Below, piece by piece: positions 28,892-46,087 of a stretch of DNA of 58,712 nucleotides. The notes below the pieces were generated by a model. That model saw only the letters and a list, made by a program, of their open reading frames with translations. It was not told where the DNA came from and did no database searches. The stretch is from the NCBI GenBank assembly GCA_016840095.1, contig JAEOSZ010000114.1, forward strand, positions 1-58,712, written 5' to 3'. How positions within the stretch are numbered: position 1 is the first letter of the stretch; each line of letters starts with the position of its first letter. Position numbers and translations under genes: made by a program. The DNA is from Candidatus Heimdallarchaeota archaeon (GTDB lineage Archaea; Asgardarchaeota; Heimdallarchaeia; Heimdallarchaeales; Heimdallarchaeaceae).

Positions 28892-28892
28892 T

Positions 28893-29684: not shown

Positions 29685-29685
29685 A

Positions 29686-30543
29686 TTAGATCAACTCCTT
29701 AATATGTTGAACGTCATAGTAAGTGAATACTGGACCTTCTAAACAGGTATATCTTCCACCAATTGCACAATGTCCACAGTGTCCTTGACCACATTTCATT
29801 CTGCGTTCAAGTGTCATTAAAATCTGATCTTTTGGGATATCAAGTTTGAGTAATTCTTTAATCACATTTTTATACATTACTGGGGGTCCGCAAATTATAG
29901 CAGTTGTTTTTTCTTTAACTACTCTATTAGTTATTTTTGGAAATAATGCTGTAACAAATCCTTCATTGTATGGCCACTCACCAGTATCATCTTTATCAAC
30001 TGATAAATGAGTTTCAACAATATCTCTTTGAGCCATTGCTATGAAATCTGCCTTGTAGAGCATATCAGCTGGACTTCTTGCACCATTCAAGAAGAATACT
30101 TGATCATATTCTTCTCTTCTGTCTTCGACGTAAAGCAGTACTGATCTTAAAGGAACAGCTCCTAAACCACCTGAAACAATTATCAGATCTCTTCCTTTCA
30201 GGCTTTCCATGTCAAAACCATCACCATAAGGACCTCGAAGATATACTGTATCTCCAACTTTGAGATTGAATAGCGCTTCTGTAAATGAACCCACTTTTCT
30301 TATACCAAATTCTATGAAATCAGTTCTTGTCGGTGGAGATGATATAGAAAACACTGCTTCGCCTACACCTGGAAGTGACATAATTGCAAATTGACCAGGC
30401 TTATAATTTTCTTCAACAATACTCTCATCTAGGAATTTAATCTTGAAATATCTTGTATCTGAGGTCAGATCTTTCATAGCAACTATTCTTGCAGGATGAG
30501 CTTTGTATGTATGTTCTCCTTCTTCTTTTGTTGTTATTGTCAT
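29686..30543 (-). CDS. hydG: Group 3b hydrogenase gamma subunit (FAD/NAD(P), 2Fe-2S)
   Basis: PGQF, RGPYG, GGLG, CGPP, ERRMKCGQGHCGHC..CLEGPV. Confidence 0.92.
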   Translation of the reverse strand: MTITTKEEGEHTYKAHPARIVAMKDLTSDTRYFKIKFLDESIVEENYKPGQFAIMSLPGVGEAVFSISSPPTRTDFIEFGIRKVGSFTEALFNLKVGDTVYLRGPYGDGFDMESLKGRDLIIVSGGLGAVPLRSVLLYVEDRREEYDQVFFLNGARSPADMLYKADFIAMAQRDIVETHLSVDKDDTGEWPYNEGFVTALFPKITNRVVKEKTTAIICGPPVMYKNVIKELLKLDIPKDQILMTLERRMKCGQGHCGHCAIGGRYTCLEGPVFTYYDVQHIKELI

Positions 30544-31586
30544 AAATCACATGCCTCCGGTAGTTCACAAACTTCTCCAAATAATGCTTCAGAGACAGTT
30601 ATTACATTAATATCTACAGGGCAGAAAGTAACACATCTTCCACAACCAACGCAGCCTGGAGTTCCCCATCGACCAATATATTCTTTCAATTTATGAGTAT
30701 AATAGAGCTTCAAACGTGATGTTCTATCTGGTCTGAAATTATGATCACCTGCAACCATTGAATAATAAGGTAGTGTACAGCTGTCTAGAACTCTTTCTCT
30801 AACTCCACCTTCTGCATTCATATCAATTCTATCTTCTACATTGAAACAATTACAAGTAGGACACACTAAACTGCATGTTCCACAAGAGAGACATTTGTCT
30901 CCGAATTGTTCCCAAACCTTGCTATCATAATTCAGATGAATTATATCTGCTAGATACTTGAAGGAAGGTATTTCACTCTTGAACATGCTTGATCTTTTCT
31001 GTTGCCATCTAACATATTCTTGAATTTCTTCATCTGATATTTCTTCAGTAAGAATATCTTCAGCTTCAATAGCTATGCTAAGCCCTTTATCTGACCCTAC
31101 CCAAACTAAATAGTATCCGTTTAGTTCTGTAAAGAACAGATCAAATCCATCTTCTACCATATCTGTGCCTGTAGATTGGCATACACAGTTATCATCTGGG
31201 AAGCAAGAATGACCTATAATTATGAGATTGTTTCTTCGTTTTTCATAGTAAGGATCTTTGATGTTTCCTAAAAACAATCTGTCAAGGATGTTAATCCCAT
31301 GAATATCACAGGGATGTACTCCCATGATGATTTGAGGTTCATCACTGACAAAAACATCTGCTTGTCCTGACTTTATGAAACGAAGAGTTGGATATCTGGA
31401 TGGTGTAAGGAATTTTTTAGGACTAACTACTGTTCTTTGATAATCGAAATCTAGTTCTTCATAACTACTGATTTCTTCAAAGGAGTATTTGCCATTTCCT
31501 TTTACTGGTCCATAGAGTTGACCCTTGGTCTTCACTAACTCAATGAACGCTGGAAACTTTTCCTTAGACATCTTATACGTTTTCAT
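30540..31586 (-). CDS. hydB: Group 3b hydrogenase beta subunit (4Fe-4S)
   Basis: HPCD, CLSCGTCSLVCPTCNCF and CVGCGRCVTFCP. Confidence 0.92.
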   Translation of the reverse strand: MKTYKMSKEKFPAFIELVKTKGQLYGPVKGNGKYSFEEISSYEELDFDYQRTVVSPKKFLTPSRYPTLRFIKSGQADVFVSDEPQIIMGVHPCDIHGINILDRLFLGNIKDPYYEKRRNNLIIIGHSCFPDDNCVCQSTGTDMVEDGFDLFFTELNGYYLVWVGSDKGLSIAIEAEDILTEEISDEEIQEYVRWQQKRSSMFKSEIPSFKYLADIIHLNYDSKVWEQFGDKCLSCGTCSLVCPTCNCFNVEDRIDMNAEGGVRERVLDSCTLPYYSMVAGDHNFRPDRTSRLKLYYTHKLKEYIGRWGTPGCVGCGRCVTFCPVDINVITVSEALFGEVCELPEACDL

Positions 31587-31896
31587 GTCATGAGAATTTT
31601 TGTGATATACTTATAAGGTAAACTATAGGGATATACAAATAGAATCTAAAATTTAAAAATAGTAAAACCACTTTTCAACGCGAGAAACTTAAGAACTTAT
31701 AACTTCTGATTTATGGAAAAAACCTATAAAACTGTGCGTTTTTTAAACACATTTAAAGGCGCTTGAAATTACTTCTAAAAAACTTAAAATATGTATTAGC
31801 GATATGTATGATTCCATGTAAAATAGCTTATAATACCTTTTAACAGCCTATTATTTATACTAACTTTTTATTTAATTATTCAAACGCATTATTTGT

Positions 31897-32079
31897 AAGA
31901 AAGGTTTATAACACATTGTATAAAAGATTCATTAATAAAACAGCGACAGAATGTTTGAAAGAACATCATATAAACCACTTTATAACACAAATCACCGTTG
32001 TGTTGTAAGCCCTTGATTTCTTAGTTTCCTTTGTTACTTCATTACTCTACTACATCTATTACCTCCCAAAGGTGAATGA
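31897..32079 (+). promoter_or_regulatory. mvh operon promoter (BRE-TATA) and long structured 5' leader
   Basis: AAGAAAGG-TTTATAA at about 31897-31911; TTTATAACACA repeated at 31905 and 31979; hairpin TTATAACACAA-ATCACCG-TTGTGTTGTAA at 31980-32008; GGTGA ribosome site. Confidence 0.5.
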
Positions 32080-33093
32080 ATGAATATAGAAGAAATTGAA
32101 GCTGAAAGCAGTACTAATAGTGGTAACAAGTTACAATTGGCATTTTATTGGGCAGCTAGTTGTGGCGGTTGTGAAATTGCAGTACTGGATATAAATGAAA
32201 AAATATTAGATGTTGTTGCTCTGGCGGATATTCTCTTTTGGCCAGTAGCTATGGACTTTAAGTACAAAGATGTTGAAGCAATGGAAGATAATTTAATTGA
32301 TGTCTGTTTCTTTAATGGCTCAATTAGAACTTCTGAGCAAAAACATCTTGCTGAACTACTTAGAAAAAAATCGAAAATCATGGTAGCTTTTGGATCTTGT
32401 GCTACAACTGGTGGTATACCTGGTTTAGCAAACTTAGCAAACAGAGAAGAAATTTTCAATGTTTCTTACATAGATAATCCTTCTACAGCAAATCCTAAAA
32501 GAACTTTACCAAAAACAGAAGTTGAAGTTGAAGAAGGAACTCTAATTCTTCCTGAATTTTATGATGAAGTAAGAAGTCTCAATCAAGTTATAGATGTAGA
32601 TTATTACTTACCTGGTTGTCCCCCTCATCCAGATTTAATTATGACTGCAGTTGGTGCAATTGCAGAAGGTAATCTTCCTGGTAAGGGATCTGTTATTGGA
32701 CCTCTCAAATCAGTTTGTGATGAGTGTAGATTTGAAAAATCTGAAAAGAAAATAAAATCAATCAAGAGAATCTATGAGCTAGAAACAATAGAGGAAAAAT
32801 GTCTTCTTGAACAAGGAGTTATTTGCTTAGGACCAGCAACTCGAGGTAGTTGTCAAGCACAGTGCTTAGATGCTAATATGCCTTGTACTGGCTGCGGAGG
32901 ACCTGCTCCTAATTCCATCGATCAAGGAGCAAGTATGATGTCTGCACTTGCATCAATTTTAGGTCTTGAAGGAGAAGAGGAAATGCCAGATGAGGAAGTT
33001 GAGAAGCTCATTGAACAAATAGTTGATCCAGTTGGAACTTTTTACAAGTATGGTTTGCCAACTGCAATTATTAATAGGAGGAAAGAACAATGA
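32080..33093 (+). CDS. mvhG: Group 3c NiFe-hydrogenase small subunit
   Basis: WAASCGGCE, GSCATTGG, PGCPP, VCDEC, CLLEQGVICLGPATRGSC. Confidence 0.93.
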   Translation: MNIEEIEAESSTNSGNKLQLAFYWAASCGGCEIAVLDINEKILDVVALADILFWPVAMDFKYKDVEAMEDNLIDVCFFNGSIRTSEQKHLAELLRKKSKIMVAFGSCATTGGIPGLANLANREEIFNVSYIDNPSTANPKRTLPKTEVEVEEGTLILPEFYDEVRSLNQVIDVDYYLPGCPPHPDLIMTAVGAIAEGNLPGKGSVIGPLKSVCDECRFEKSEKKIKSIKRIYELETIEEKCLLEQGVICLGPATRGSCQAQCLDANMPCTGCGGPAPNSIDQGASMMSALASILGLEGEEEMPDEEVEKLIEQIVDPVGTFYKYGLPTAIINRRKEQ

Positions 33094-34556
33094 CAACAAT
33101 TACAATAGATCCAATTACTAGATTGGAAGGTCATGGAAAAATCGTTATTTTTCTAGATGAAAAAGGAGATGTAAAAAATGTCTATCTTCAAATTCCAGAA
33201 TTGAGAGGTTTTGAAAGATTTGCTCAAGGAAGAAGAGCAGAAGATATGCCTCAGATCACTTCAAGGATATGCGGTGTATGCCCAGTAGCTCATCATTTTG
33301 CAGCGACTAAGGCATTGGATAGGGCTTTCAATGTTGACCCTCCAATAGTAGCAAAAAAACTCAGAGAATTGATGTATAGCGGTTACTATATTTATGATCA
33401 CATCTTGCACTTTTACTATCTTGGAGGACCTGATTTTGTTGTTGGTCCTGATGCTCCAGCAGCTAAGAGAAATGTTCTTGGTGTTATAGAAAAAGCAGGA
33501 ATTGAGATCGGTAAAGAAGTTATAAAGCATAGGGCTTATGGTCAAAAAATAACTGCTATTTTGGGTGGAAAAGCTACACATCCCGTATGTGGTCTTCCTG
33601 GAGGAGTCTCTAAACCACTTTCAGCTGACGAAGTTGGTGAAATAAAAACAATGGTTCAATCTTGTGTTAACTTTGCACAATTCTCATTAAAGCTGTTTGA
33701 TGATATTGTCCTTCAAAATGAGGATTATGTCAATCTAATTCTTAGTGATCCTTACACTTTGAAGACCTACAATATGGGCTTAGTAGATGAAAACAATAAA
33801 GTAAACTTCTATGACGGTCTAATTAGAATTACTGATACCCAAGGAAAAGAGTTTCTGAAGTTTGATGTTAATGATTACTTCAAACATATCGACGAACATG
33901 TAGAGGAGTGGAGTTATATCAAATTCCCATATCTCAAAAAGATTGGTTGGAAAGGGTTTACTGCAGGTCAAGAGAGTGGAGTTTATCGAGTCGGTCCCCT
34001 TGGAAGACTCAATGCTGCTGATGGAATGGCAACTCCTTTAGCCGATGCAGAATACAAACGGATGTATGAAACCTTAGGTGGAATACCTGTTAATTCAACT
34101 TTAGCTTTTCACTGGGCAAGACTAATTGAATTGCTTTACGCTACTGAAAGAGCTCAGGAACTAATTAATGAGCCAGATATTACTTCAAAAGAAATAAGGA
34201 ATCCGGTAGGAGAACCAGGTGAGGGGATAGGAGTAACTGAAGCAGCTCGTGGAACACTCATCCATCATTATAAACTGGATGAGAAAGGATTGATAGAGAA
34301 AGCAAATCTCATAGTAGCAACAACAAATAATTCTGCTGCAATTAGTATGTCTATCAGAGAAGCAGCTAAGGGACTTATAAAAAAGGGTGAAGTAAATGAT
34401 GGTCTTTTGAATATGGTTGAGATGGCATTTCGAGCATATGATCCCTGTTTTGCATGTGCGACTCACTCACTACCTGGTAAGATGCCTTTGGAAGTTCAGA
34501 TCTATTCTCATGATGAGAAATTGATCAAGTCTATTAAGAGAGGTGATTCAAAATGA
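33090..34556 (+). CDS. mvhA: Group 3c NiFe-hydrogenase large subunit
   Basis: TRLEGHG; L1 RICGVCPVAH; L2 DPCFACATH with a C-terminal extension. Confidence 0.95.
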   Translation: MTTITIDPITRLEGHGKIVIFLDEKGDVKNVYLQIPELRGFERFAQGRRAEDMPQITSRICGVCPVAHHFAATKALDRAFNVDPPIVAKKLRELMYSGYYIYDHILHFYYLGGPDFVVGPDAPAAKRNVLGVIEKAGIEIGKEVIKHRAYGQKITAILGGKATHPVCGLPGGVSKPLSADEVGEIKTMVQSCVNFAQFSLKLFDDIVLQNEDYVNLILSDPYTLKTYNMGLVDENNKVNFYDGLIRITDTQGKEFLKFDVNDYFKHIDEHVEEWSYIKFPYLKKIGWKGFTAGQESGVYRVGPLGRLNAADGMATPLADAEYKRMYETLGGIPVNSTLAFHWARLIELLYATERAQELINEPDITSKEIRNPVGEPGEGIGVTEAARGTLIHHYKLDEKGLIEKANLIVATTNNSAAISMSIREAAKGLIKKGEVNDGLLNMVEMAFRAYDPCFACATHSLPGKMPLEVQIYSHDEKLIKSIKRGDSK

Positions 34557-35005
34557 CTATTACGGAAACTAAAACGGAACAACAAGAATTTGAACCAAAT
34601 ATCATTGGCTTTTTATGTAATTGGTGTTCCTATGCAGGTGCTGATCTTGCAGGAACTAGCAGAATCCAATACCCCCCGAATATCAAGATTATCAAAGTTA
34701 TGTGTTCTGGTAGAGTAAATCCAATGTATGTAGTTAATGCACTTCAACAAGGAGCTGATGGAGTTCTAATTGGAGGATGTCATCCTGGTGATTGTCACTA
34801 TCAGCATGGAAATCTGCTGGCTAGACGTCGAATAGCGATTTTAAAGAACCTCTTAGAATTCATAGGTATTGACTCAAGAAGAGTTAGAATGACATGGGTA
34901 AGTGCAGCAGAAGGAAGAAAATTTGCTGAGGTAGTTAAAGAAGTAACTGAAGAGATCAAGAAACTTGGTCCCATGGAAAAAATTCAAAGGGGAAATAAAT
35001 GGTAG
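34553..35005 (+). CDS. mvhD: MvhD/FlxD 2Fe-2S adaptor subunit (copy 1)
   Basis: FLCNWCSYAGAD, MCSGRV, GCHPGDCHY. Confidence 0.93.
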   Translation: MTITETKTEQQEFEPNIIGFLCNWCSYAGADLAGTSRIQYPPNIKIIKVMCSGRVNPMYVVNALQQGADGVLIGGCHPGDCHYQHGNLLARRRIAILKNLLEFIGIDSRRVRMTWVSAAEGRKFAEVVKEVTEEIKKLGPMEKIQRGNKW

Positions 35006-35982
35006 ACCAGCAGTTACTTATAGAAGAAGCAAAGAAAGTTGTTTCTCGTGATGATGTAAAATACGTTATTGGTTACAAGAAAGGAACTTACGGTTTTGCT
35101 ATAAGTCCAGCATTTGCTTATTCAGAAGAATATGTGGACAAATTCATCTTCAATCCTTTATGTAAAAAGAATTTAACAGCTTATCCAATTTTAGAAGATA
35201 AGCTTCCCCTACAGAGAGGAGAAGAAGAAGATAAAAGAAAAATAGGTATTGTAGCTAAAGGTTGTGATACTCGAGCATTAGTTCAAATAATTCAAGAAAA
35301 AGGTCTCAAGAGGGAAGATGTGGTAATAATAGGTATTCCTTGTACTGGTGTTATTGACCAAAAGAAGATAATCTCTCGTTTTCCAAATGAACCTTCTTAT
35401 TCTGAATTAAAGGAAGAAAATGGAATTTACAAAATTACTATCAATGGAACAGTCCATGACATTGAGAAAAAAGAATTATTGGCTGATTATTGTACAAGTT
35501 GTGTTGCTCCAAATCCAGTTCTCTATGATGTTCTTATTGGTCAAGAAGTTGAACCATGGGAACAACAAGAGCACAAGAATCTAGACATATTAGAAAAGAA
35601 AAATGTAGAAGATAGATGGAAATACTGGGAGAAGCATTTTCAAAACTGTATTCGATGTTATGCCTGCAGAGAAGCCTGTCCATTATGCTATTGTAAGGAA
35701 TGTATGGCAGATCTCCTTAAACCACAGTGGATTAGAAGATCTGTAAATACATCTGAAAATACGGCTTGGAATATTATGAGAGCATATCATCTCGTGGGAC
35801 GATGTGTAGGATGTGGAGAATGTGAGACAGTTTGTCCAGCAAATATTCCACTTATGGAATTGAACAAAGAAATCGAGAAAGATGTGAAAAACATGTACAA
35901 TTATACAGCTGGAATGGATTCAGAGGAAAAACCACTCTTTGGTACTTTCCGTCCTGATGATCCAGAGGAGTTTATAATGTGA
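34999..35982 (+). CDS. FlxC-like 4Fe-4S protein
   Basis: KGCD, CIRCYACREACPLCYC and GRCVGCGECETVCP; lies between mvhD and the AsrA-like gene as in flxDCBA. Confidence 0.8.
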   Translation: MVDQQLLIEEAKKVVSRDDVKYVIGYKKGTYGFAISPAFAYSEEYVDKFIFNPLCKKNLTAYPILEDKLPLQRGEEEDKRKIGIVAKGCDTRALVQIIQEKGLKREDVVIIGIPCTGVIDQKKIISRFPNEPSYSELKEENGIYKITINGTVHDIEKKELLADYCTSCVAPNPVLYDVLIGQEVEPWEQQEHKNLDILEKKNVEDRWKYWEKHFQNCIRCYACREACPLCYCKECMADLLKPQWIRRSVNTSENTAWNIMRAYHLVGRCVGCGECETVCPANIPLMELNKEIEKDVKNMYNYTAGMDSEEKPLFGTFRPDDPEEFIM

Positions 35983-35988
35983 GGTGTT

Positions 35989-37017
35989 ATGATGGAGAAT
36001 TTAGTTTTACAAAAAGATCAATTTCCTGATTTCATTAAGGGATTAACTTCAAATCATATAGTATATGGACCTGTCAAAGAAGATGGATTTTCATTATTTA
36101 AAAATATCAAAGAAGCTGGAGAATTAAATCTAAAATACTTACTCACCCGAGTTTCTCCAAAATCTTTAATCTTCAAGCAAACAGAAACTCTATTCAAGTT
36201 TACTCCTGGAAGAAAAGGATCTGTTTCATCTTCAGAGATTTATGATGAAAAGAGTATAATCTTCGCAATCAGACCTTGTGATGCTAGAAGTTTCAAGATA
36301 CTTGATCCAGTGTTTAATGGTGATTTCGAAGATCCCTTTTACATATCTAAACGTGAAAACACCATTCTCATAGGACTCACTTGCAACAAACCAGAGAGAA
36401 ACTGTTTCTGCACATCATTTGATGATAGTCCAGGTTCAACTGAAAATGTTGACATCTTATTCACAGATTTAGATAATCGTTTTTATATTGAAGTTGTAAC
36501 TGAAAAGGGTAAGAACCTTATTGAACCAATGAGTAAACTTCTAGCTAAATCATCTTCAGATGAAGAAGAAGCAAAGAAAATTATTGTAAATAGTTCAGTA
36601 GAAACAATCTCAAGAGAAATGAACCTAAAAGGGATAGTACCAAAACTTGACGGTATGTTTGATCATGAACTTTGGTTCAACACAGCTTTGAAATGTATTG
36701 GTTGTGGAATTTGTACTTTCTTGTGTCCAACTTGTCATTGCTTTGATATGCAAGATGAAAGCACTTTGAGAGAAGGTGCAAGAATTCGAGTTTGGGACTC
36801 TTGTATGTATCCTGAATATACGCATCATGCTTCTGGTCATAATCCACGTCCATCAAGAATGAATAGAGTTCGAAATAGAGTATATCATAAGTTTAGTTAT
36901 TTCCCCAAGAATGAGGATGTTACGGCTTGTACGGGATGCGGAAGGTGTATAGACTTTTGCCCAGTCAATATCGATATTATTGACTTGATTGAAAAGGTGG
37001 AGGTTTTGGCAAAATGA
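35989..37017 (+). CDS. FlxB-like (AsrA/HydB family) 4Fe-4S protein
   Basis: RPCD, CFC, CIGCGICTFLCPTCHCF, WDSC, CTGCGRCIDFCP. Confidence 0.85.
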   Translation: MMENLVLQKDQFPDFIKGLTSNHIVYGPVKEDGFSLFKNIKEAGELNLKYLLTRVSPKSLIFKQTETLFKFTPGRKGSVSSSEIYDEKSIIFAIRPCDARSFKILDPVFNGDFEDPFYISKRENTILIGLTCNKPERNCFCTSFDDSPGSTENVDILFTDLDNRFYIEVVTEKGKNLIEPMSKLLAKSSSDEEEAKKIIVNSSVETISREMNLKGIVPKLDGMFDHELWFNTALKCIGCGICTFLCPTCHCFDMQDESTLREGARIRVWDSCMYPEYTHHASGHNPRPSRMNRVRNRVYHKFSYFPKNEDVTACTGCGRCIDFCPVNIDIIDLIEKVEVLAK

Positions 37018-37853
37018 CTGTAAATCCTTATAGTCCAATATCGGCAACAATCTTGGAAATACGAGAGGAAGCTATTGGAGAGAGACCAATTAAGACTTTC
37101 AAATTAGTATTTGATGATCAAGAAGAAATGAAGAATTTTGATTTTATTCCTGGACAGTGTATAATGGTTAGTCTATATGGTTCAGGAGAATGTTTCTTTG
37201 CAATTTCATCATCACCAACTCAGAAAGATTATCTAGAAGTTAGTGTATTGAGGTTGGGCAAAGTTACATCTGAATTTCATCAATATGCACCAGGGGATTC
37301 TGTAGGATTAAGAGGTCCATATGGAAACCATTTCGATGTCAAAGGTTGGGAAGGAAAGAATCTATTGTTTATTGGAGGAGGAATAGGACAAGCCCCACTT
37401 CGGTCAATAATTAATTATGCGATAGATAATCGAGATAAATATAATGATTTAACTATCATTTATGGAGCAAGATCTACAAGCGATTTGTGCTATAAAGATG
37501 AATTTATTGAATTAAAGAAAAGAGATGATGTAAATGTACATCTCTCAATAGATGTTGAAGAAGAAGGGTGGGAAGAATTTGTTGGTTTTGTGCCCGATAA
37601 TCTCAAACAACTGGATCCTTCTCCAGAAAATACTATTGCGATTACTTGTGGTCCTCCAATAATGATCAAATATGTAATTCAGAATTTAATTGAACTTGGG
37701 TTCAAAGACGAACAAATATTCACTACATTGGAAATGAGAATGAAATGTGGTGTTGGTGTTTGTGGACGCTGTAATATTGGAAATCTCTATGTCTGTAAAG
37801 ATGGTCCAGTCTTTTCGTATGAGCAGCTAAAAAATCTAGAAGGAGATATGTAG
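37014..37853 (+). CDS. FlxA-like (AsrB/HydG family) FAD/NAD(P)-binding 2Fe-2S protein
   Basis: PGQ, RGPYG, GGGIG, CGPP, EMRMKCGVGVCGRC..CKDGPV. Confidence 0.87.
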   Translation: MTVNPYSPISATILEIREEAIGERPIKTFKLVFDDQEEMKNFDFIPGQCIMVSLYGSGECFFAISSSPTQKDYLEVSVLRLGKVTSEFHQYAPGDSVGLRGPYGNHFDVKGWEGKNLLFIGGGIGQAPLRSIINYAIDNRDKYNDLTIIYGARSTSDLCYKDEFIELKKRDDVNVHLSIDVEEEGWEEFVGFVPDNLKQLDPSPENTIAITCGPPIMIKYVIQNLIELGFKDEQIFTTLEMRMKCGVGVCGRCNIGNLYVCKDGPVFSYEQLKNLEGDM

Positions 37854-37861
37854 GTGGTATT

Positions 37862-39808
37862 ATGAAAATAGGTGTATATGTATGTGAATGTGGGATTAAT
37901 ATTGGTGCAACTGTCGATGTACCAGAAGTTGTAGAAAGAATAAAATCACTTCCAAATGTAGAAATTAGCCGTTATAATAGATACACTTGTTCTGATCCTG
38001 GTCAAGAATCAATCAGGAAAGATATTAGGGAACTTAATCTAGATAGAGTTGTTGTTGCTTCCTGTTCTCCTCGAATGCATGAATCTACATTCAGGGGGGT
38101 TGTTGAAGAAACAGGTATCAATCCCTATTGTTTCGAAATGGTCAATATTCGAGAACATGTTTCATGGGTTCATAAAGATAAGGAAAAGGCAACCGAAAAA
38201 GCTTTTGAACTTATTTCTGGAGCAGTAGCAAGAGCACAATTTCTTGAACCTTTAGAACGAAAAGAAGTTAGTGTTATTCCAAAATCATTAGTGATTGGTG
38301 GTGGAGTATCGGGTATTCAAACAGCTCTAGAAATCGCTAATGATGGTTTTCAGGTTTATCTAGTTGAGAACTATCCAAGCATAGGAGGAAGGATGGCACA
38401 ATTAGATAAAACTTTTCCAACACTTGACTGTTCAGCTTGTATTTTGACTCCTAAAATGGTAGATGCTGCAAGACATCCAAATATTGAACTCATGACCTAT
38501 TCAGAAATTGAGAAAGTTGATGGTTATATTGGTAATTTCAAAGTTACTGTAAAGAAGAAACCTAGGTATGTTGATGTTGAGAAATGTGTTGGATGTGGAT
38601 TATGTGCTGAAGCATGTAGATTGAAAGGTAGATCTCTAAATGAATTTGATGAAAATCTAAGCAAAAGAAGCTCAATCTATGTTCCATTCCCTCAAGCTGT
38701 TCCATTGAAATATACTGTTGATCCAAATCGATGCAATATGCTAAAACATGGAAAATGTGGAGATGAACTACTCTGTGTTGCTGCATGTGAACAAAATGCG
38801 ATAGATTTCGACCAGAAAGAAGAGTTAGTTGAGATAGATGTTGGAACAATAGTTGTTGCAACTGGATTTGATAATTATGATCCTTCAAATGATTTAGAAT
38901 ATGGATATGGTGAATTAGATAATGTCATCACTGCTATGGAATTTGAGAGGATTGTAAATGCAGCAGGACCAACTGAAGGACATCTCGAAATTAATGGTAA
39001 GGAACCAAATAATGTAGTATTCATCCAGTGTGTTGGATCACGTGACAAAGAAGGACATGAATACTGCTCTAGAGTTTGCTGTATGTATACTGCTAAGCAA
39101 GCTCACATGGTTAGAGACAAATATCCTGACTCTGATGTAACGGTATATTTCACAGACGTCAGAGCTTTTGGAAAAGGTTTCGAAGAATTTTACAATCGGG
39201 TCAAAGATGAAGATATAATTTATAGAAGAAGAGATCTTGATGATTCAATTCAAGTTGTTGGCAATGAAGAAGGAGTGTTAGTTAAAGCTGAAGGACATCC
39301 TGATATTCATGCAGATTTAGTTGTTCTAGCCACAGGTTTAGTACCCAGAAATGATACTAAAGAGCTTGCCAGAAAACTCAACATAAGTTTGAGTGGTGAT
39401 GGCTTTATGCTAGAAGCTCATCCCAAGTTACGTCCTGTAGATACTTTTACTGATGGAATATTCATAGCTGGTTGTTGTCAAAGTCCCAAAGATATTCCAG
39501 ATTCAGTTGCACAAGCAAGTGGTGCAGCTGTTAGAGCTGCAGCTCCATTAGCACAAGGAAAAGTTCTAGTGGAAGCTATAACTGCTAAAATCAATGATGA
39601 TTTGTGCAGTGGATGTCGAATTTGTGAGAAACTCTGTGCCTATTCAGCATTAGAATATTCTAGTGAAGACAAGATAGTGAAAATTAATGATGTGTTGTGT
39701 AAAGGCTGTGGAAGTTGTGCAGCTGCCTGTCCAACGGGTGCAATAACTATGCAGCACTATAGCAATAAGCAAGTGCTTGCTCAAATAGGAGGTATTCTTT
39801 CAAAATAG
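37862..39808 (+). CDS. hdrA: Heterodisulfide reductase subunit A (FAD, 4Fe-4S)
   Basis: YVCECG, GGGVSG, KTFPTLDCSAC, CVGSRD...YCSRVCC, plus inserted and C-terminal ferredoxin domains. Confidence 0.95.
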   Translation: MKIGVYVCECGINIGATVDVPEVVERIKSLPNVEISRYNRYTCSDPGQESIRKDIRELNLDRVVVASCSPRMHESTFRGVVEETGINPYCFEMVNIREHVSWVHKDKEKATEKAFELISGAVARAQFLEPLERKEVSVIPKSLVIGGGVSGIQTALEIANDGFQVYLVENYPSIGGRMAQLDKTFPTLDCSACILTPKMVDAARHPNIELMTYSEIEKVDGYIGNFKVTVKKKPRYVDVEKCVGCGLCAEACRLKGRSLNEFDENLSKRSSIYVPFPQAVPLKYTVDPNRCNMLKHGKCGDELLCVAACEQNAIDFDQKEELVEIDVGTIVVATGFDNYDPSNDLEYGYGELDNVITAMEFERIVNAAGPTEGHLEINGKEPNNVVFIQCVGSRDKEGHEYCSRVCCMYTAKQAHMVRDKYPDSDVTVYFTDVRAFGKGFEEFYNRVKDEDIIYRRRDLDDSIQVVGNEEGVLVKAEGHPDIHADLVVLATGLVPRNDTKELARKLNISLSGDGFMLEAHPKLRPVDTFTDGIFIAGCCQSPKDIPDSVAQASGAAVRAAAPLAQGKVLVEAITAKINDDLCSGCRICEKLCAYSALEYSSEDKIVKINDVLCKGCGSCAAACPTGAITMQHYSNKQVLAQIGGILSK

Positions 39809-39817
39809 GAGTTGATT

Positions 39818-42800
39818 ATGATGAAAGTAGGAGTATATGTATGTGAATGTGGGATCAATATAAGTGCGACAGTAGATGTAGAGAAAGTTGCTGAAGTAGC
39901 TAAAGATTTTCCCAATGTTGAAGTGAGTAGGTTTTACAAGTACATGTGTTCTGATCCAGGTCAAGAACTGATTAAGCAAGATATCGATGACTTGCAGCTG
40001 GATAGAATTGTAGTTGCATCCTGTTCTCCTCGAATGCATGAACCAACATTTAGAGCAGTTGTTGAAGATAAAGGAATGAATGCTTATTGTCTTGAAATGG
40101 TCAATATCCGAGAACAAGATTCTTGGGTTCATAAAGATAAGAAATCTGGAACAGAGAAAGCAATTGCTTTAGTAAGAAGTGGAGTTCTCAAAGCATCTCT
40201 TCTCAAACCTTTAATCAAGAAGAAAGTAGGAGTGACTCCAAATGCCTTAGTAATTGGTGGAGGAATAGCAGGCATTCAAGCAGCTTTAGATATAGGGAAT
40301 ATGGGTTTTCAAACATATCTAGTAGAAAAAACTCCAAGTATAGGAGGGGTAATGGCTCAATTAGACAAAACTTTTCCAACTTTAGATTGTTCAGCTTGTA
40401 TCTTGACACCTAAGATGGTAGATGTTGCACGTCATCCTAACGTTGAATTAATGACATACTCAGAAATTGAAAATGTTGAAGGTTATACAGGTAATTTCAA
40501 AGTAACAGTTAAGAGAAAAGCTCGTTATGTTGATGTAACCAAATGTACTGCTTGCGGTGATTGTACAGAGAATTGTCCCGTAATTGAACTAGATGATTAC
40601 AATGCAAATATGATGGATAGGAAAGCAATCTATATTCCGTTTCCACAAGCTGTTCCTCAGAAGTATACAATTGCTAAAACAGATGAATACTCACCATGCA
40701 AGGTAACTTGTCCTGCTAATAATAACGCTCAGGGCTATGTCCAACTTATTGGTATGGGTAAATTCAAAGAAGCACTTGGAGTAATTCGTGATAAGAATCC
40801 TTTCCCATCCGTTTGTGGAAGAGTTTGTCATCATCCTTGTGAAGAGGTATGTAAAAGAGCGGATATCGATGAACCAATTTCTATCATGCAGCTGAAGAGA
40901 TTTGCAGCTGATTATAATAGAACTCATGATGAACCAACTCCTGAGGTAATCGAACCAACACAGAAGGAAAAAATTGCCATTATAGGTGCAGGACCTTCAG
41001 GTTTATCTTGTGCAATAAGATTACTTGAGAGAGGATATTCAGTTACTGTTTATGATGAAACAGATGTTCCTGGAGGTATAATGACCAGTTGTCTACCCTC
41101 ATATCGTCTTCCTGTAGAAATTGCAATGTATGATATTAATCGACTCTTAGAACAGGGTATAGAACTTATTAAGAATACTAAGGTAGGAAGAGACATTTCT
41201 TTTGATGAAATCCGCAAAATGTATGATGCAGTTTATGTAGGAATAGGAGCTCAACTTCCAGCATCTCTATATGTGGAAGGATCAGGCGTTTCAGGAATTT
41301 TACAAGGAATGACATTCTTGAAGGAAGCTAAAGTTGGTATAAAATCCCCAGAATTTGGCGAGAAAATTACTGTAATCGGTGGTGGAAATGTTGCCATGGA
41401 TTGTGCTAAAGTTGCTTTGAGAATGGGTGGAGTTAAAGAAGTTAATGTTGTATGTCTTGAAACCAGAGACCTCGCACTAAAAGATAGGATGCCAGCAGAC
41501 ATCTGGGAAATTGAAGAATCAGAAGAAGAAGGAGTTATTTTCTACAATGAATTAGGTCCGAAGAAAATTGTTAGTAAGGGTGGAAAAGTTACAGGTTTAG
41601 AAACTATGATTTGTACTTCAGTCTATGAAGAAGATGGATCATTTAAACCAGAATTTTGTGATGATCCTGCACCAATTATTGAGTGTGATACAATTATCTT
41701 TGCAATAGGACAAAAATCTGACCTTACAGGGTTTGAATTATTAGAGACCAATCCAGGAGGTCAAACTCTAAGAGTAGACCCAATAACATTTGAGACAAGT
41801 GTTCCCGGAGTATTTGCTGGAGGAGACATAGTACCTGGAATTCCTTCAGTTGTAAATGCTATCGGAACTGGAGCTGAAGCAGCTGTTTCTATTGATAGAT
41901 ATCTCAAAAAAGAGGATATTAGAGGTGGAAGAGTTAGAGATATTACCAAAATTGATGTTGTTAGATTAGAGAAAGATAAACGACCTCGTATGAAGATGAA
42001 TCGAGCTCCAGTAGAAGAAAGAATAAAGGATTTCAGAGAAATAGATTTAGGTTATACTGAAGAACAAGCAGTACAAGAAGCTCTAAGATGTATATCTTGT
42101 TCAATCTGTTCTGAATGTATGCAATGTGTTGAAACATGTCAAGCAGAAGCTATTAATCATGAACAAGAACATGAATACATAGACCTAGATATTGGGGCAA
42201 TTGTCGTCGCAACAGGATTTGATAATTTTGACCCATCTACTAAACCTGAGTATGGTTATGGAAAAACACCAAATGTCATAAGTGCGATAGAATTCGAAAG
42301 GCTAGTTTCTGCATCTGGACCTACCTTAGGTCACATAGAAATTAACGGAAAAGAACCAGAAAATGTTGTATTTATTCAATGTGTAGGATCACGTGATAAA
42401 GAAGGACACGAGTATTGTTCACGAGTGTGCTGTATGTATACTGCTAAACAAGCTCACATGGTTAGAGATAAATTACCAAATTCAAAATTAACAGTTTATA
42501 ATACCGATGTAAGGGCTTTTGGTAAAGGCTTCGAGGAATTTTACAATCGGGTTCAAGCTGAAGATATTGATTATCGACGACGAGAATTAGAAGATGCCAT
42601 TGAAGTTGTAGGTAATGAAAAGAGTGTAATTGTTAAAGCAGAAGGTCACCCAGATATTCATGCAGATCTTGTTGTATTAGCAACTGGTTTAGAACCTCGA
42701 GAAGATTCAAAAGAGCTATCCAGATTACTCAATATCAACATGAGTGAGGATGGATTTTTCTTAGAAGCACATCCGAAGCTTAGACCTGTAGATACCTTTA

Positions 42801-43177
42801 CCGATGGTGTGTTCTTAGCTGGTTGTTGTCAGAGTCCAAAAGATATACCTGATACAGTAGCTCAAGCAAGTAGTGCAGCTTCAAGAGCTTGTAACATTCT
42901 ATCACAAGATGAGTTAGAAATTGAAGCAACAGTTGCACAAGTTGATGAAGAGCTATGTAGAGGTTGTGGATTCTGCGTAGAATCATGTCCATACTTAGCA
43001 ATTGAACTAAAAACAATCAATCAATATGGCTATGAAACAGAAGTAGCTTTTGTTAATGAAGCTCTGTGTAAAGGATGTGGAAGTTGTGCTGCAGCTTGTT
43101 TGAATGCAGCTATCAGTCACCTAGGATATACAGACGATCAAATACTTGCACAAATTAAAGCATTAGGAGAAAGATAA
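39818..43177 (+). CDS. HdrL-type HdrA carrying an inserted GltD/NfnB-like FAD/NAD(P) oxidoreductase module
   Basis: All HdrA motifs plus an insert with PCKVTCP..CGRVCHHPCEEVC, GAGPSG, GGGNVAMD and FAGGD. Confidence 0.9.
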   Translation: MMKVGVYVCECGINISATVDVEKVAEVAKDFPNVEVSRFYKYMCSDPGQELIKQDIDDLQLDRIVVASCSPRMHEPTFRAVVEDKGMNAYCLEMVNIREQDSWVHKDKKSGTEKAIALVRSGVLKASLLKPLIKKKVGVTPNALVIGGGIAGIQAALDIGNMGFQTYLVEKTPSIGGVMAQLDKTFPTLDCSACILTPKMVDVARHPNVELMTYSEIENVEGYTGNFKVTVKRKARYVDVTKCTACGDCTENCPVIELDDYNANMMDRKAIYIPFPQAVPQKYTIAKTDEYSPCKVTCPANNNAQGYVQLIGMGKFKEALGVIRDKNPFPSVCGRVCHHPCEEVCKRADIDEPISIMQLKRFAADYNRTHDEPTPEVIEPTQKEKIAIIGAGPSGLSCAIRLLERGYSVTVYDETDVPGGIMTSCLPSYRLPVEIAMYDINRLLEQGIELIKNTKVGRDISFDEIRKMYDAVYVGIGAQLPASLYVEGSGVSGILQGMTFLKEAKVGIKSPEFGEKITVIGGGNVAMDCAKVALRMGGVKEVNVVCLETRDLALKDRMPADIWEIEESEEEGVIFYNELGPKKIVSKGGKVTGLETMICTSVYEEDGSFKPEFCDDPAPIIECDTIIFAIGQKSDLTGFELLETNPGGQTLRVDPITFETSVPGVFAGGDIVPGIPSVVNAIGTGAEAAVSIDRYLKKEDIRGGRVRDITKIDVVRLEKDKRPRMKMNRAPVEERIKDFREIDLGYTEEQAVQEALRCISCSICSECMQCVETCQAEAINHEQEHEYIDLDIGAIVVATGFDNFDPSTKPEYGYGKTPNVISAIEFERLVSASGPTLGHIEINGKEPENVVFIQCVGSRDKEGHEYCSRVCCMYTAKQAHMVRDKLPNSKLTVYNTDVRAFGKGFEEFYNRVQAEDIDYRRRELEDAIEVVGNEKSVIVKAEGHPDIHADLVVLATGLEPREDSKELSRLLNINMSEDGFFLEAHPKLRPVDTFTDGVFLAGCCQSPKDIPDTVAQASSAASRACNILSQDELEIEATVAQVDEELCRGCGFCVESCPYLAIELKTINQYGYETEVAFVNEALCKGCGSCAAACLNAAISHLGYTDDQILAQIKALGER

Positions 43178-43180
43178 AGT

Positions 43181-43672
43181 TTGAAATCAGTAATCATTGG
43201 ATTAGGAAACCCTATTGTTGGAGATGATGCAGTAGGCATCAAAGTTGTTGAATACATTAGGGATACTCTTTCTCTTCCAAGTTATGCTGATGTTATGGCT
43301 GATATTTCTATAGCAGGTGTGGGATTAGTTGAACTTTTTAGAGGATATAAACAAGTTATACTTATTGACTCTATTCAGTCTGGAGCGTTTCCAATTGGAA
43401 CAGTAAAATTACTTGCGCCAGATCAATTTTCACTTGCTTTGCACACTTCTGATTACCATAACATGGATCTATTTACAGCTTTAGAATTTAGTAATCAGAT
43501 GTATGATGATATTCCAGAAGAAATCAAAATTATAGGAATAGAGATAATCAGTCCTATAGAATTTAGTGATGAATTATCAACTGATATCTCAAAGAAATTT
43601 GAAGATATTGTTGATGAAGTGTATAAAATAATCACTCAAGAATTAGAAATGGAGATAAATCAAACAATATGA
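43181..43672 (+). CDS. Hydrogenase maturation endopeptidase
   Basis: GLGNPIVGDDAVG, LIDS, DYHN. Confidence 0.9.
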   Translation: MKSVIIGLGNPIVGDDAVGIKVVEYIRDTLSLPSYADVMADISIAGVGLVELFRGYKQVILIDSIQSGAFPIGTVKLLAPDQFSLALHTSDYHNMDLFTALEFSNQMYDDIPEEIKIIGIEIISPIEFSDELSTDISKKFEDIVDEVYKIITQELEMEINQTI

Positions 43673-43697
43673 AATTAGAATTTAAGGAGATAGAAAA

Positions 43698-44114
43698 ATG
43701 GAAGAATTTGAACCAAACATAATTGGATTCTTATGCAATTGGTGCTCCTATGCAGGAGCTGATTTAGCAGGAACCAGCAGAATAAAGTATCCCACAAATA
43801 TCAAGATAATACGCGTTATGTGCTCAGGCAGAGTAGATCCTGCATTTGTTCTGGAGTCATTGAAGAAAGGAGCTGATGGTGTACTTATTTCTGGCTGTCA
43901 TTTTGGGGAATGTCATTATAAATCTGGGAACTACAAAGCAAGTCGTAGAATAAAGCTTACTAAGAAGTTTCTGGAGGAGATGGGTATCGATCCTAATCGA
44001 GTTAGATTCGAGTTTGTCTCCGCATCTGAAGGAAATAAGTTTGCTGATATTGTTACAGATTTTGTTGAACAATTAAAGGAACTAGGTCCATTGACTTTGC
44101 AGTTAATACAATGA
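43698..44114 (+). CDS. mvhD: MvhD 2Fe-2S adaptor subunit (copy 2)
   Basis: FLCNWCSYAGAD, MCSGRVD, GCHFGECHY. Confidence 0.93.
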   Translation: MEEFEPNIIGFLCNWCSYAGADLAGTSRIKYPTNIKIIRVMCSGRVDPAFVLESLKKGADGVLISGCHFGECHYKSGNYKASRRIKLTKKFLEEMGIDPNRVRFEFVSASEGNKFADIVTDFVEQLKELGPLTLQLIQ

Positions 44115-44159: not shown

Positions 44160-45143
44160 ATGCCAAGGATATTAGTAACTGGTGCTAATGGATGTACAGG
44201 AAGGGGAGTACTACAGTATCTAGTTTCTAAAGGTTATACAGATGTCTTTGGTATGGTACGTAAAGATCCTAAAGATAAAATTTCTAATATCAATTATGTA
44301 GTTGGAGATCTAACTGATAAGAACTCAATATTCAAAGTTCTACGAGAGAATGAAATTGAGTCTATCTGGCATATTGCTGCAGCTGTTCATAGACATGTTA
44401 GGAAAAAGGATTTTGCAAGAGTTAATTTTGAGGGAACAAATAATCTGATCCAAGCTGCAGTAGATTGTGGAGTCAAGTCAATCGTTTTTGCAAGCACTAC
44501 ATCTGTATACGGAAAAATTATTGATTCTCCTGCATCTGAAGAACATAGAATCAAACCACTAGGTCTTTACTCAAAATCAAAGTACAATGCAGAAGTCTTA
44601 ACAAAACTCCTGTGTGAAGAAAATGGGATTAAGGGAAGTATTGTTCGAATACCTATAATAATGGGAAAACATGATCGTCATTTTTCCCCAGTTGTAACTA
44701 AATTAGTTAAAGCAAATATCATGCCAATTATTGGTAAACCAAAGCATAGAGTTTCCATAGTACACCCGTACGATATTGGTCAAGCTTTTGAAATTCTTAA
44801 TGGAAATGGTAAAGAGAAAATAGAGTGTTATAATATTGCTTCTTGTAATAGTCCATACAAAGAACTGATATTAGTCATAGAGAAACAACTTGTTGGTAAA
44901 AAGAGGTTAAAATATTATGTTCCATACCCGATAGTTTTTGCAGTATTTGCATTTTATGAGTGGTTTCATTGGTTAATCTTTCCGAAGAAACAACCTCTTA
45001 TTAATCGAGAATATGCGAGAATGATAGGAAAGGAATGGATTTTTGATACAGAAAAACTTGAGCAGTTAGGGTATACCCCTAAGATGAAACTTGAGGATAT
45101 TGTTAAAGATACAGTTACTGAAGAAGTATATCCTGTTTCATAG
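44160..45143 (+). CDS. Extended SDR NAD-dependent epimerase/dehydratase (3-beta-HSD-like)
   Basis: TGANGCTG, HIAA, NFEGT, YSKSK. Confidence 0.88.
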   Translation: MPRILVTGANGCTGRGVLQYLVSKGYTDVFGMVRKDPKDKISNINYVVGDLTDKNSIFKVLRENEIESIWHIAAAVHRHVRKKDFARVNFEGTNNLIQAAVDCGVKSIVFASTTSVYGKIIDSPASEEHRIKPLGLYSKSKYNAEVLTKLLCEENGIKGSIVRIPIIMGKHDRHFSPVVTKLVKANIMPIIGKPKHRVSIVHPYDIGQAFEILNGNGKEKIECYNIASCNSPYKELILVIEKQLVGKKRLKYYVPYPIVFAVFAFYEWFHWLIFPKKQPLINREYARMIGKEWIFDTEKLEQLGYTPKMKLEDIVKDTVTEEVYPVS

Positions 45144-45196: not shown

Positions 45197-46087
45197 ATGT
45201 TAATGAGTACTGAAATCATTTCTATTACAGATGATTGTATAGGTTGTGGAAGCTGTTCAGATGTTTGTCCGAGATATATCTTTGACATAGTTGAGAAGAA
45301 AGCTGTAACCAACCAAAATCTGTTTCGCTGTCATGACTGTGGTCATTGTGTTGCAGTATGCCCAGAGAATGCCATAATTCAACATAGAATGCAAGAAAAA
45401 ACTCTAGATGAAGATTTCCCCATGAGAGGTAAAACAATTACTTACGAACAGGCATTGGAAACAATTCGACAAAGAAGATCAATAAGAAGTTTCTCTGATA
45501 AAAAAGTTACTAAGGAACAGCTGGACAAACTTATTCTTTTGGGAAGATACGCACCTACAGGGCATAATGATAGGAAGGTATGCTATACAATTATCAATGA
45601 TAGAGAAAAACTCGAATATCTTTTAGATACAATGATAGGTTTGTTCAAGAAACTTAAGAAACAGCTGAAGAATCCTTTGTGGAACCTAATTGCAATTCTA
45701 GCTGGGAAAAAGCACACATTAGATCGAGCTAAAAAAAGTGAATACCGATTGGACAGTCACATCTATCATTGGGAAAGAGGCATTGACAAGGTTTTACATA
45801 GTTCTTCTACTTTGTTCCTGATTCATACACATAAAGATACTTCAGCTCCCATTGAAGACTGTAACATAGCTGCACAGAATATTGCTCTAGGAGCACCATC
45901 ATTAGGATTAGGTGCAACTTTTATTGGGTATGTACAGAAAAGTTGGGAAATGTCTAAGAAGATAAAAGTGTTATTAAATCTACCAAAAGATCATAAATTG
46001 CTTGCAGTATTGGCTATTGGTTATCCAAAGAATAAATATAGAAGACTAGTGCCCAGACCTGAACCTAGAATAAAAATAGTTTCTTGA
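45197..46087 (+). CDS. Nitroreductase family protein with N-terminal 2x[4Fe-4S] ferredoxin
   Basis: CIGCGSCSDVCP, CHDCGHCVAVCP, RRSIRSF, APTGHN, IGYP. Confidence 0.9.
   Translation: MLMSTEIISITDDCIGCGSCSDVCPRYIFDIVEKKAVTNQNLFRCHDCGHCVAVCPENAIIQHRMQEKTLDEDFPMRGKTITYEQALETIRQRRSIRSFSDKKVTKEQLDKLILLGRYAPTGHNDRKVCYTIINDREKLEYLLDTMIGLFKKLKKQLKNPLWNLIAILAGKKHTLDRAKKSEYRLDSHIYHWERGIDKVLHSSSTLFLIHTHKDTSAPIEDCNIAAQNIALGAPSLGLGATFIGYVQKSWEMSKKIKVLLNLPKDHKLLAVLAIGYPKNKYRRLVPRPEPRIKIVS

Follow-up and report, generated by a model that had tools for sequence, protein, structure and literature searches.

The question raised by this locus is with which partners an HdrA-based hydrogenase exchanges electrons when its operon lacks the disulfide reductase HdrBC. 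The locus lies in a 58,712-nucleotide stretch of DNA, here called the window, from Candidatus Heimdallarchaeota archaeon (GCA_016840095.1, JAEOSZ010000114.1), which is contig C126 of a metagenome-assembled genome of 165 contigs and 3.44 Mb (89% complete, 7.8% contamination). Ten genes at 32080-44114, all on the plus strand, encode an Mvh-type [NiFe]-hydrogenase, an Flx-type NAD(P)H module, two HdrA-type subunits (HdrA, and an HdrL split by a GltD/NfnB-type module), two MvhD adaptors and a maturation protease. We assign a probability of about 0.5 to the reading that these products form a soluble multi-subunit [NiFe]-hydrogenase/flavin-Fe-S complex that would reversibly couple H2, NAD(P)(H) and ferredoxin without a dedicated disulfide sink.

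A conserved operon joins Mvh, Flx and two HdrA-type subunits

The ten open reading frames have coordinates identical to those in a first-pass annotation of the same DNA, and neighbours either overlap by 4-7 nucleotides or are separated by gaps of 3-25 nucleotides. Together with Pfam and NCBIfam assignments, which give the order MvhG, MvhA, MvhD1, FlxC, FlxB, FlxA, HdrA, HdrL, maturation protease and MvhD2, these coordinates bear out the tightly packed Mvh-Flx-HdrA-HdrL operon described there:

32080-33093, plus strand: MvhG/VhuG-like [NiFe]-hydrogenase small subunit, 337 residues with 13 cysteines (Pfam Oxidored_q6, 1.3e-26; best NCBIfam model VhuG, 2.8e-62, below the equivalog cut-off)
33090-34556, plus strand: MvhA/VhuA-like (group 3c-like) [NiFe]-hydrogenase large subunit, 488 residues (Pfam NiFeSe_Hases; best NCBIfam model VhuA, 2.3e-128, below the equivalog cut-off)
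34553-35005, plus strand: MvhD1, [2Fe-2S] adaptor and FlxD ortholog (Pfam FlpD, 1.3e-57), with conserved cysteines and a GCHPGDCH motif
34999-35982, plus strand: FlxC-like Fe-S protein, 327 residues, with a C-terminal dicluster domain of the FdhB/HdrC (Fer4_8/Fer4_17) type by Pfam
35989-37017, plus strand: FlxB-like Fe-S protein, 342 residues (Pfam Fer4_22, 1.1e-34; PDB 9NEZ_B, 3.4e-50; NCBIfam ShyB/HydB/AsrA, below cut-offs)
37014-37853, plus strand: FlxA-like FAD/NAD(P)H/[2Fe-2S] subunit, 279 residues (Pfam NAD_binding_1, DHODB_Fe-S_bind and FAD_binding_6)
37862-39808, plus strand: full-length HdrA, 648 residues (PDB 8RVU_a, 1.7e-230 over residues 2-646, end to end with methanogen HdrA)
39812-43177, plus strand: HdrL, a type III HdrA of 1121 residues, complete but split by a GltD/NfnB-type module (more than 7000 homologs)
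40679-42106, plus strand: the GltD/NfnB-like insert within HdrL, about residues 290-765 (Pfam Fer4_20, 1.3e-20; Pyr_redox_2, 6e-41)
43181-43672, plus strand: HycI/HyaD-type hydrogenase maturation endopeptidase (Pfam HycI, 8.1e-11; NCBIfam TIGR00072, 3.4e-26, above cut-off)
43698-44114, plus strand: MvhD2, the second [2Fe-2S] adaptor (Pfam FlpD, 1.6e-57)

A survey of operon conservation, which the first-pass annotation had recommended, finds the same gene order in congeners, in G051, which belongs to a second genus, and in an ENA metagenome assembly of independent origin, and because of this recurrence the operon is neither chance nor an assembly product; it is real and conserved. Within the genus it was counted in about 11 of 25 genomes, with the full order confirmed where contigs allowed (G001, G012 and G013, at 74-93% protein identity) and partial copies on short contigs of G010 and G014; in G011 too the order was confirmed in part. 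HdrL-type matches occur in about half of these 25 genomes, those of G008, G018 and G022 being pieces at contig ends. In every operon copy of both genera hdrA adjoins hdrL or a split variant of it described below, and in G014 and G051 mvhD2 directly follows the HdrL position, where the protease gene intervenes in the window.

The large subunit places the hydrogenase. It carries the NiFe-binding motifs RICGVCPVAHH and DPCFACATH and a 26-residue C-terminal extension of the type cleaved off by a maturation protease, and its best PDB matches are the large subunit of the bifurcating NiFe-Hyd of Acetomicrobium mobile (7T2R_D, 2.5e-119) and methanogen MvhA (5ODC_F, 6.6e-111), whereas the alpha subunit of sulfhydrogenase (SHI) matches at only about 1e-32. 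The idea that the operon is a group 3b-like hydrogenase with extras was rejected on this difference in large-subunit similarity (6.6e-111 for MvhA against about 1e-32).

The Flx module resembles that of a canonical Flx-Hdr cluster on another contig of the assembly (C29), with the same flxD-C-B-A-hdrA order, 78% identity between MvhD1 and the FlxD encoded there, and 67% identity between the FlxC proteins. Residues 202-315 of FlxC match the C-terminal part of FdhB in Fdh-Hdr and Elp-Hdr complexes (9T1S_M, 4.7e-23; 7BKB_E, 3.2e-22; 8RVU_E, 7.9e-21), and because it is FdhB that MvhD pairs with in the solved structures, FlxC is likely the docking subunit for MvhD1. FlxB is homologous to the sulfhydrogenase beta subunit and to AsrA, and FlxA to the gamma subunit (HydG-like; PDB 9NEZ_C, 5e-62), with NfnA and PyrK more distant (NfnA 4YLF_A, 7.1e-17). 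MvhD2 shares about 65% identity with MvhD1 and 66% with the FlxD on C29; the MvhD of an hdrC'B'-hdrL'-mvhD-mvhGA cluster in the congener G006 is 58% identical to MvhD2 and 53% to MvhD1, and we infer that MvhD2 is the hydrogenase-side adaptor. HdrA-type subunits and MvhD adaptors are each encoded twice in the operon, alongside a single hydrogenase module and a single Flx module, and since FlxC carries the Fe-S domain type of FdhB, an MvhD-docking protein, a two-armed layout with one H2 arm and one NAD(P)H arm is plausible. The two-arm picture of the first-pass annotation agrees to this extent with gene content and with the likeness of FlxC to FdhB, the arms themselves being drawn from homology and synteny.

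Two complete HdrA-type subunits, one with a pyridine-nucleotide module

Residues 5-289 and 766-1117 of HdrL align to residues 5-290 and 293-648 of methanogen HdrA (5ODC_A), and because the alignment breaks at residues 290/293, the insert of about 470 residues is placed in the inserted ferredoxin domain of HdrA, between its two cysteine motifs. In characterized complexes this domain holds clusters HA5 and HA6, the low-potential exit to ferredoxin or MvhB, and cluster HA4 leads to HdrC, with MvhD feeding the FAD of the partner protomer (PMC13580544; PMC9012536). The insert contains a two-cluster Fer4_20 region (Cys 296, 300, 335, 339, 343 and 347), a GAGPSG motif for FAD and, for NAD(P)H, a GGGNVA motif (GxGxxA) that leans to NADP(H) by the rule of thumb of PMC12054007. 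Matches of the insert to StnA, NfnB and GltD chains in the PDB run from 2e-99 to 1e-48, with the NfnB-like range at 5.3e-72 to 1.4e-65, and other HdrL inserts share 54-58% identity with it.

Both subunits are otherwise complete. Each retains the N-terminal cluster domain, the C-terminal ferredoxin domain, the DCSAC pair (Cys197/Cys200 of M. thermolithotrophicus) and counterparts of E356 and K409, which have been connected with bifurcation (PMC12054007). Since HdrA and HdrL are each complete, nothing in them enforces the asymmetric HdrA:HdrL heterodimer that had been put forward earlier, although such a heterodimer is plausible. Heteromers appear to exist in this family, because in Thorarchaeial Mvh clusters (L028, 15119-19608; L040, 8886-16341), which have three or four HdrA-type genes, the paralogs lose complementary domains: an HdrL of 913-930 residues and an HdrA of 443 residues have lost the terminal domains and kept DCSxC, and an HdrA of 579-582 residues has kept the terminal domains and lost DCSxC together with the inserted ferredoxin domain. 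Such complementary loss implies obligate heteromers.

The operon HdrA has no NAD(P)H module in its inserted ferredoxin domain. In this domain the second cluster motif (38730-38790, about residues 289-312) reads Cx7Cx5Cx3C, the corresponding motif of the canonical HdrA on C29 being Cx7Cx2Cx3C, and the first motif is without the usual proline; both oddities are kept in all orthologs.

The first-pass annotation had also supposed that the GltD/NfnB-like insert replaces HdrBC, which is contradicted by its position in the ferredoxin branch and by the finding that most sampled HdrLs adjoin hdrCB. Of 400 sampled Asgard genomes, 136 have HdrL-type genes, which also occur across many phyla of bacteria, and in most of 26 annotated hdrL neighbourhoods (20 from the phylum survey and 6 others, not all Asgard) hdrCB and/or mvhD stand alongside. 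Because most HdrL genes elsewhere adjoin hdrCB, the insert would be no general stand-in for HdrBC.

A tree of the HdrA core, built with the insert columns removed, unites the operon HdrA, the operon HdrL and the canonical HdrA of C29 in one clade (Shimodaira-Hasegawa-like approximate likelihood ratio test, SH-aLRT, 100) that excludes every other sampled HdrL, including the HdrL' of congeners. Because its core groups with local HdrAs and its insert resembles other HdrL inserts, the operon HdrL is a mosaic that arose either through a separate insertion or through gene conversion involving the neighbouring HdrA. Plain vertical descent from other Asgard HdrLs was rejected on this grouping of the core with the local HdrAs. 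More than one insertion event has been inferred for type III HdrA (PMC12054007).

Unrelated modules exchange at the HdrL position

The strongest evidence for the role of the second HdrA-type subunit comes from operons in which the GltD-type module is absent and its place is taken by another. In G011, of the same genus, and in G051, of another genus and with the full operon, three overlapping open reading frames stand where HdrL would be, in operons of twelve (G011) and eleven (G051) genes, and the same three are found at the HdrL position in G004, but inside an hdrC'B'-type cluster:

5975-10930 of contig C34 in G011 (L025): split NuoEF variant at the HdrL position
6798-11786 of contig C15 in G051 (L139): split NuoEF variant at the HdrL position
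8483-13447 of contig C107 in G004 (L140): split NuoEF variant at the HdrL position

The first frame encodes the N-terminal half of HdrA fused to a NuoE-type [2Fe-2S] domain, the second a NuoF-type FMN/NADH subunit, and the third the N-terminal [2Fe-2S] domain of NuoG fused to the C-terminal half of HdrA. It is again the inserted ferredoxin domain that is interrupted, between its two cysteine motifs and about 25 residues away from where the GltD module enters, so that two unrelated NAD(P)H-oxidizing modules are, as judged from these genes, interchangeable at one position of HdrA. Because GltD-type and NuoEF-type modules occupy one position in orthologous operons, the subunit at the HdrL position is best read as a pyridine-nucleotide port on the HA5/HA6 arm. 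Our literature search, whose coverage was incomplete, found no description of this split HdrA-NuoEF variant, in effect an HdrA that holds a Bfu-like NADH module.

HdrBC is encoded elsewhere in the genome

Translated in six frames and searched with the CCG model PF02754, the whole assembly gave no match on contig C126, as expected from the earlier claim that no CCG-domain HdrB lies in the window, and matches on contigs C29 and C165 only. The search for hdrB and hdrC across the genome, which had been suggested as a check on that claim, therefore shows that the genome is not HdrBC-less: C29 (L006, 1773-13447) carries canonical hdrC-hdrB in a flxD-flxC-flxB-flxA-hdrA-hdrC-hdrB cluster, the flx-hdrA genes of which match those of the operon block in size and are 52-78% identical to them. 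Pyruvate:ferredoxin oxidoreductase genes lie upstream of this cluster, and an Fe-S protein and a 556-residue FAD_binding_2 flavoprotein downstream; these flanking genes give hints of a possible role of the canonical HdrBC. The match on C165 (L005, 6526-9562) is a fused HdrC-HdrB-like protein of 397 residues adjoining an FAD_binding_4 oxidase-like protein and GcvH, in a locus flanked by a tRNA-splicing endonuclease gene and two genes for Arf-family GTPases, in keeping with an Asgard archaeon of the Heimdall group.

Of the 25 genomes of the genus, 22 contain canonical HdrB, with the operon or without it. This near-universal occurrence regardless of the operon neither proves nor excludes use of HdrBC in trans. 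No second HdrB was detected in the operon-bearing genomes among these 25, and in G010, which is 90% complete and carries the operon, the query used gave no HdrB match. Several congeneric HdrB matches (G004, G005, G006, G007, G011, G017 and G022) were reported with one in-frame TAG, which may be read-through at the gene end.

Gene neighbourhoods give a further comparison. Congeners without the operon can hold an hdrC'B'-hdrL'-mvhD-mvhGA cluster instead (G006, G004), and set against that cluster within the genus, the operon has Flx-HdrA where HdrC'B' would stand, a pattern that fits with Flx-HdrA taking the place of HdrBC as third partner. A single cluster of hdrCB, an HdrL-type gene, mvhD and mvhGA was found in 5 of the 26 neighbourhoods, one in the target genus and the others in Thorarchaeota or a family taken as Thorarchaeia. 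Among the bacterial matches listed, 5 of 57 HdrL loci have this cluster type and 25 of 57 have HdrL with HdrBC and without Mvh or Flx, and hdrL-flxDCBA units without adjacent HdrB occur at no fewer than five loci, three of them with an HdrC-like open reading frame nearby. The locus L027 (GCA_030615625.1) reads hdrL-flxDCBA-hdrA-hypF and is HdrBC-less. The combination of Mvh, Flx, HdrA and HdrL without HdrBC was confined to the target family among the matches listed.

Proposed mechanism and its alternatives

We know of no heterodisulfide in Asgard archaea. Because the operon encodes no disulfide reductase, the proposed complex would be left with H2, with NAD(P)H at two sites (FlxA and the HdrL port) and with ferredoxin at the unmodified HdrA as its partners. 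FlxCBA would dock through MvhD1, the counterpart of FlxD, onto one HdrA-type subunit, and MvhAG through MvhD2 onto one HdrA-type subunit; the HdrL insert would provide the pyridine-nucleotide port wired to HA5/HA6, and the ferredoxin site would stay on the unmodified HdrA. Flavin-based confurcation or bifurcation at the HdrA-type FAD(s) would then couple H2/H+ with NAD(P)(H) and ferredoxin reversibly, such that a fermenting Asgard archaeon could evolve H2 from NAD(P)H and reduced ferredoxin. The complex would be a functional analog of the Bfu-type HydABC(SL), possibly with an added Nfn-like NADH/NADPH component.

Several observations are consistent with this mechanism, including the proximity of the large subunit to MvhA and to NiFe-HydL of A. 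mobile and its distance from group 3b, the orthology of MvhD1 to canonical FlxD with MvhD2 nearer to the MvhD of hdrL'-mvhD-mvhGA clusters, and the recurrence of HdrBC-less hdrL-flxDCBA(-hdrA) units elsewhere (L027 and five bacterial loci among the matches listed). Other considerations weigh against it. With HdrC absent, no partner is in view for HA4 as an exit from either HdrA-type subunit, and canonical HdrBC is encoded elsewhere in the genome and could act in trans. The insert appears to lie on the low-potential branch, which would be awkward for NAD(P)+ as a high-potential acceptor. The biochemically characterized group 3c enzymes all oxidize H2 (PMC11216029), and the proposed subunit contacts derive from homology and synteny. 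It seems to us distinctly doubtful that the mechanism takes its most elaborate form, in which one asymmetric HdrA:HdrL particle with two bifurcation-competent flavins would connect four pools (H2, NAD(H) via Flx, NADP(H) via the HdrL port, and ferredoxin via HdrA) with no thiol or disulfide.

One alternative is that the operon co-transcribes two homodimeric enzymes, an NAD(P)H:ferredoxin module (FlxABC-MvhD1-HdrA)2 and an H2:NAD(P)+ module (MvhAG-MvhD2-HdrL)2. With a Cys197-type ligand and an N-terminal domain in both HdrA and HdrL, each could in principle homodimerize, and each half has a parallel, since hdrC'B'-hdrL'-mvhD-mvhGA clusters manage without a second HdrA and the canonical Flx-Hdr cluster manages without HdrL. 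However, because each half would have fewer than three redox partners without HdrBC, neither could bifurcate alone; hdrA stands beside hdrL or its NuoEF variant in all operon copies of two genera; and heteromeric HdrA paralogs are indicated in the Thorarchaeial Mvh clusters and have been proposed for anaerobic methanotrophic archaea (ANME; PMC9012536). We regard this arrangement as unlikely. The distribution of HdrBC bears on another possibility, that HdrC and HdrB from the C29 cluster bind the operon HdrA and/or HdrL in trans to give an Mvh/Flx-HdrABC-type enzyme that reduces a disulfide. The genes for such an assembly are present here and in 22 of 25 congeners, nearly all operon carriers included; the clade that joins the operon HdrA and HdrL with canonical HdrA at SH-aLRT 100 suggests that an HdrC-binding surface may persist; and most HdrL genes of other lineages adjoin hdrCB. 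Yet HdrBC is equally common in operon-less genomes, with no specific co-occurrence, the canonical cluster already owns an HdrA and an Flx module, and HdrB was not found in the operon-bearing, 90% complete G010 with the query used. HdrBC-less hdrL-flx units moreover recur independently, and because the sister architecture encodes hdrC'B' in cis, the missing HdrBC of the operon looks like a real difference. On this evidence recruitment in trans seems unlikely.

The kinship of FlxB and FlxA with the beta and gamma subunits of the P. furiosus sulfhydrogenase, and the true group 3b operon back-to-back with this one, could also be accommodated by a non-bifurcating NAD(P)+-reducing hydrogenase in which MvhAG works with FlxBA as in groups 3b and 3d. 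HdrA and HdrL would then only conduct electrons, or would form an Nfn-like transhydrogenase that has nothing to do with H2, and the NfnA-like FlxA and NfnB-like HdrL insert do recall NfnAB. This is improbable given a large subunit that is 3c-like (1e-111 against 1e-32 for 3b), a flxDCBA-hdrA block paralogous to a hydrogenase-free Flx-Hdr cluster, the bifurcation-linked residues kept at both HdrA-type flavin sites, and a dedicated 3b enzyme already next door.

Relation to known systems

The proposed disulfide-independent complex shares components with several characterized enzymes. Like MvhAGD-HdrABC of hydrogenotrophic methanogens (5ODC, 9SW2) it has group-3c-type subunits, MvhD and a full-length HdrA with E356/K409 equivalents; unlike it, the operon lacks HdrB and HdrC, adds HdrL, a second MvhD and the Flx NAD(P)H module, and resides in an Asgard host. 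The order flxD-flxC-flxB-flxA-hdrA is that of FlxABCD-HdrABC (Hdr-Flox), known from Desulfovibrio vulgaris (Ramos et al. 2015, as cited in PMC12054007 and PMC5947623) and represented here by the C29 paralog with its similar gene sizes, but hdrL-hycI-mvhD2 stands in place of hdrC-hdrB and mvhG-mvhA is added upstream. As in NfnAB/NfnSL (4YLF, 5JCA), one component (the HdrL insert) is NfnB-like and another (FlxA) NfnA-like, except that the NfnB-like part is embedded in HdrA and FlxA is nearer to the sulfhydrogenase gamma subunit and belongs by synteny to the Flx module. The homologs of sulfhydrogenase beta and gamma are not accompanied in the operon by a 3b-type alpha subunit.

HdrL shares with type III HdrA of D. 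autotrophicum, ANME-1 and Bathyarchaeota a GltD/NfnB module of about 470 residues in the inserted ferredoxin domain, an mvhD gene after it and an association with Mvh. An hdrL followed by mvhD has been the HdrL signature since the HdrL-MvhD of D. autotrophicum in 2009 (PMC2702500), HdrABC/HdrL has been detected in S. fumaroxidans proteomes (PMC5947623), and in Bathyarchaeota type III hdrA clusters with mvhADG (PMC12054007). Unlike these HdrLs, this one lacks HdrBC in its operon and is joined by an unmodified HdrA and by Flx. Its NAD(P)H motif is GxGxxA, against GxGxxG reported for type III HdrA (PMC12054007), and its core is paralogous to the HdrA encoded next to it and falls outside other HdrL clades. 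The type III proteins of ANME-1 are HdrA9-11, and in ANME HdrA-NfnB fusions with possibly two bifurcation sites and heterodimers of HdrA paralogs have been proposed (PMC9012536). Tandem or fused HdrA paralogs of ANME share with the operon two adjacent hdrA-type genes and the idea of an asymmetric dimer, although the ANME and Thorarchaeial pairs show complementary loss (N-terminal domain against Cys197) and the operon HdrA and HdrL are both complete.

The likeness to Bfu-type FeFe-HydABC and to NiFe-HydABCSL of A. mobile (7T2R; PMC8880783) is one of possible mechanism, not of family: the proposed reaction, H2 to and from NAD(P)H and reduced ferredoxin, would be disulfide-free in the same way, no PDB chain matches MvhA better than the A. 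mobile large subunit, and G011, G051 and G004 hold NuoE, NuoF and NuoG(N) domains, but the flavin/Fe-S core of the operon is HdrA-type rather than NuoEF-type, and Pfam searches found no NuoF-like or NuoE-like domain in the ten window genes.

The concepts behind the first-pass annotation, which presented the locus as a candidate new architecture, are not new, as the literature already has heterodimers of HdrA paralogs, HdrA-NfnB fusions and clusters of type III HdrA and mvhADG (PMC9012536, PMC12054007, PMC2702500), and Asgard papers treat group 3c enzymes as MvhADG-HdrABC (PMC11291895). Every part was known beforehand; it is the combination that is undescribed in the literature searched, since our search, incomplete in coverage, found no paper describing this ten-gene operon. 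The heterodimer and HdrBC-independent bifurcation are put forward here as hypotheses.

Neighbouring genes

The operon is bordered by a shared intergenic region and by further genes:

27146-31586, minus strand: group-3b-like operon, hydB-hydG-hydD-hydA with its own protease, complete and sulfhydrogenase-type
31587-32079: AT-rich divergent intergenic region of 493 bp, common to the group-3b-like operon (minus strand) and the Mvh-Flx-Hdr operon, and presumed from the reading of the sequence to be a promoter region
44160-45143, plus strand: NAD-dependent epimerase/dehydratase-family protein (Pfam), 45 nucleotides after mvhD2 and possibly co-transcribed with the operon
45197-46087, plus strand: 2x[4Fe-4S]-nitroreductase fusion (Pfam), after a gap of 53 nucleotides and possibly co-transcribed with the operon

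The divergent pairing with the 3b operon is kept in G001, G012 and G013. The epimerase and nitroreductase genes also lie 3' of mvhD2 in G001, G010, G011 and G013; the pair was not detected in the approximately 2.2 kb of G012 sequence downstream of the operon, and in G051 the epimerase gene stands there alone, without the nitroreductase. The Fe-S nitroreductase could be a redox partner of the complex.

Implications

Production and consumption of H2 by Asgard archaea are central to syntrophy models of eukaryogenesis, and the operon represents a conserved, expressible candidate for a disulfide-independent route between H2, NAD(P)H and ferredoxin in Heimdallarchaeia. For the study of electron bifurcation it would provide a test of whether the HdrA flavin bifurcates without HdrBC, and the natural exchange of GltD-type and NuoEF-type modules offers a built-in comparative experiment on the role of the second HdrA-type subunit. 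If the asymmetric particle were real, it would amount, in the archaea most closely related to eukaryotes, to an HdrA-based enzyme that combines a confurcating hydrogenase with an Nfn-like transhydrogenase and whose pyridine-nucleotide port would evolve by the swapping of modules, GltD-type against NuoEF-type.

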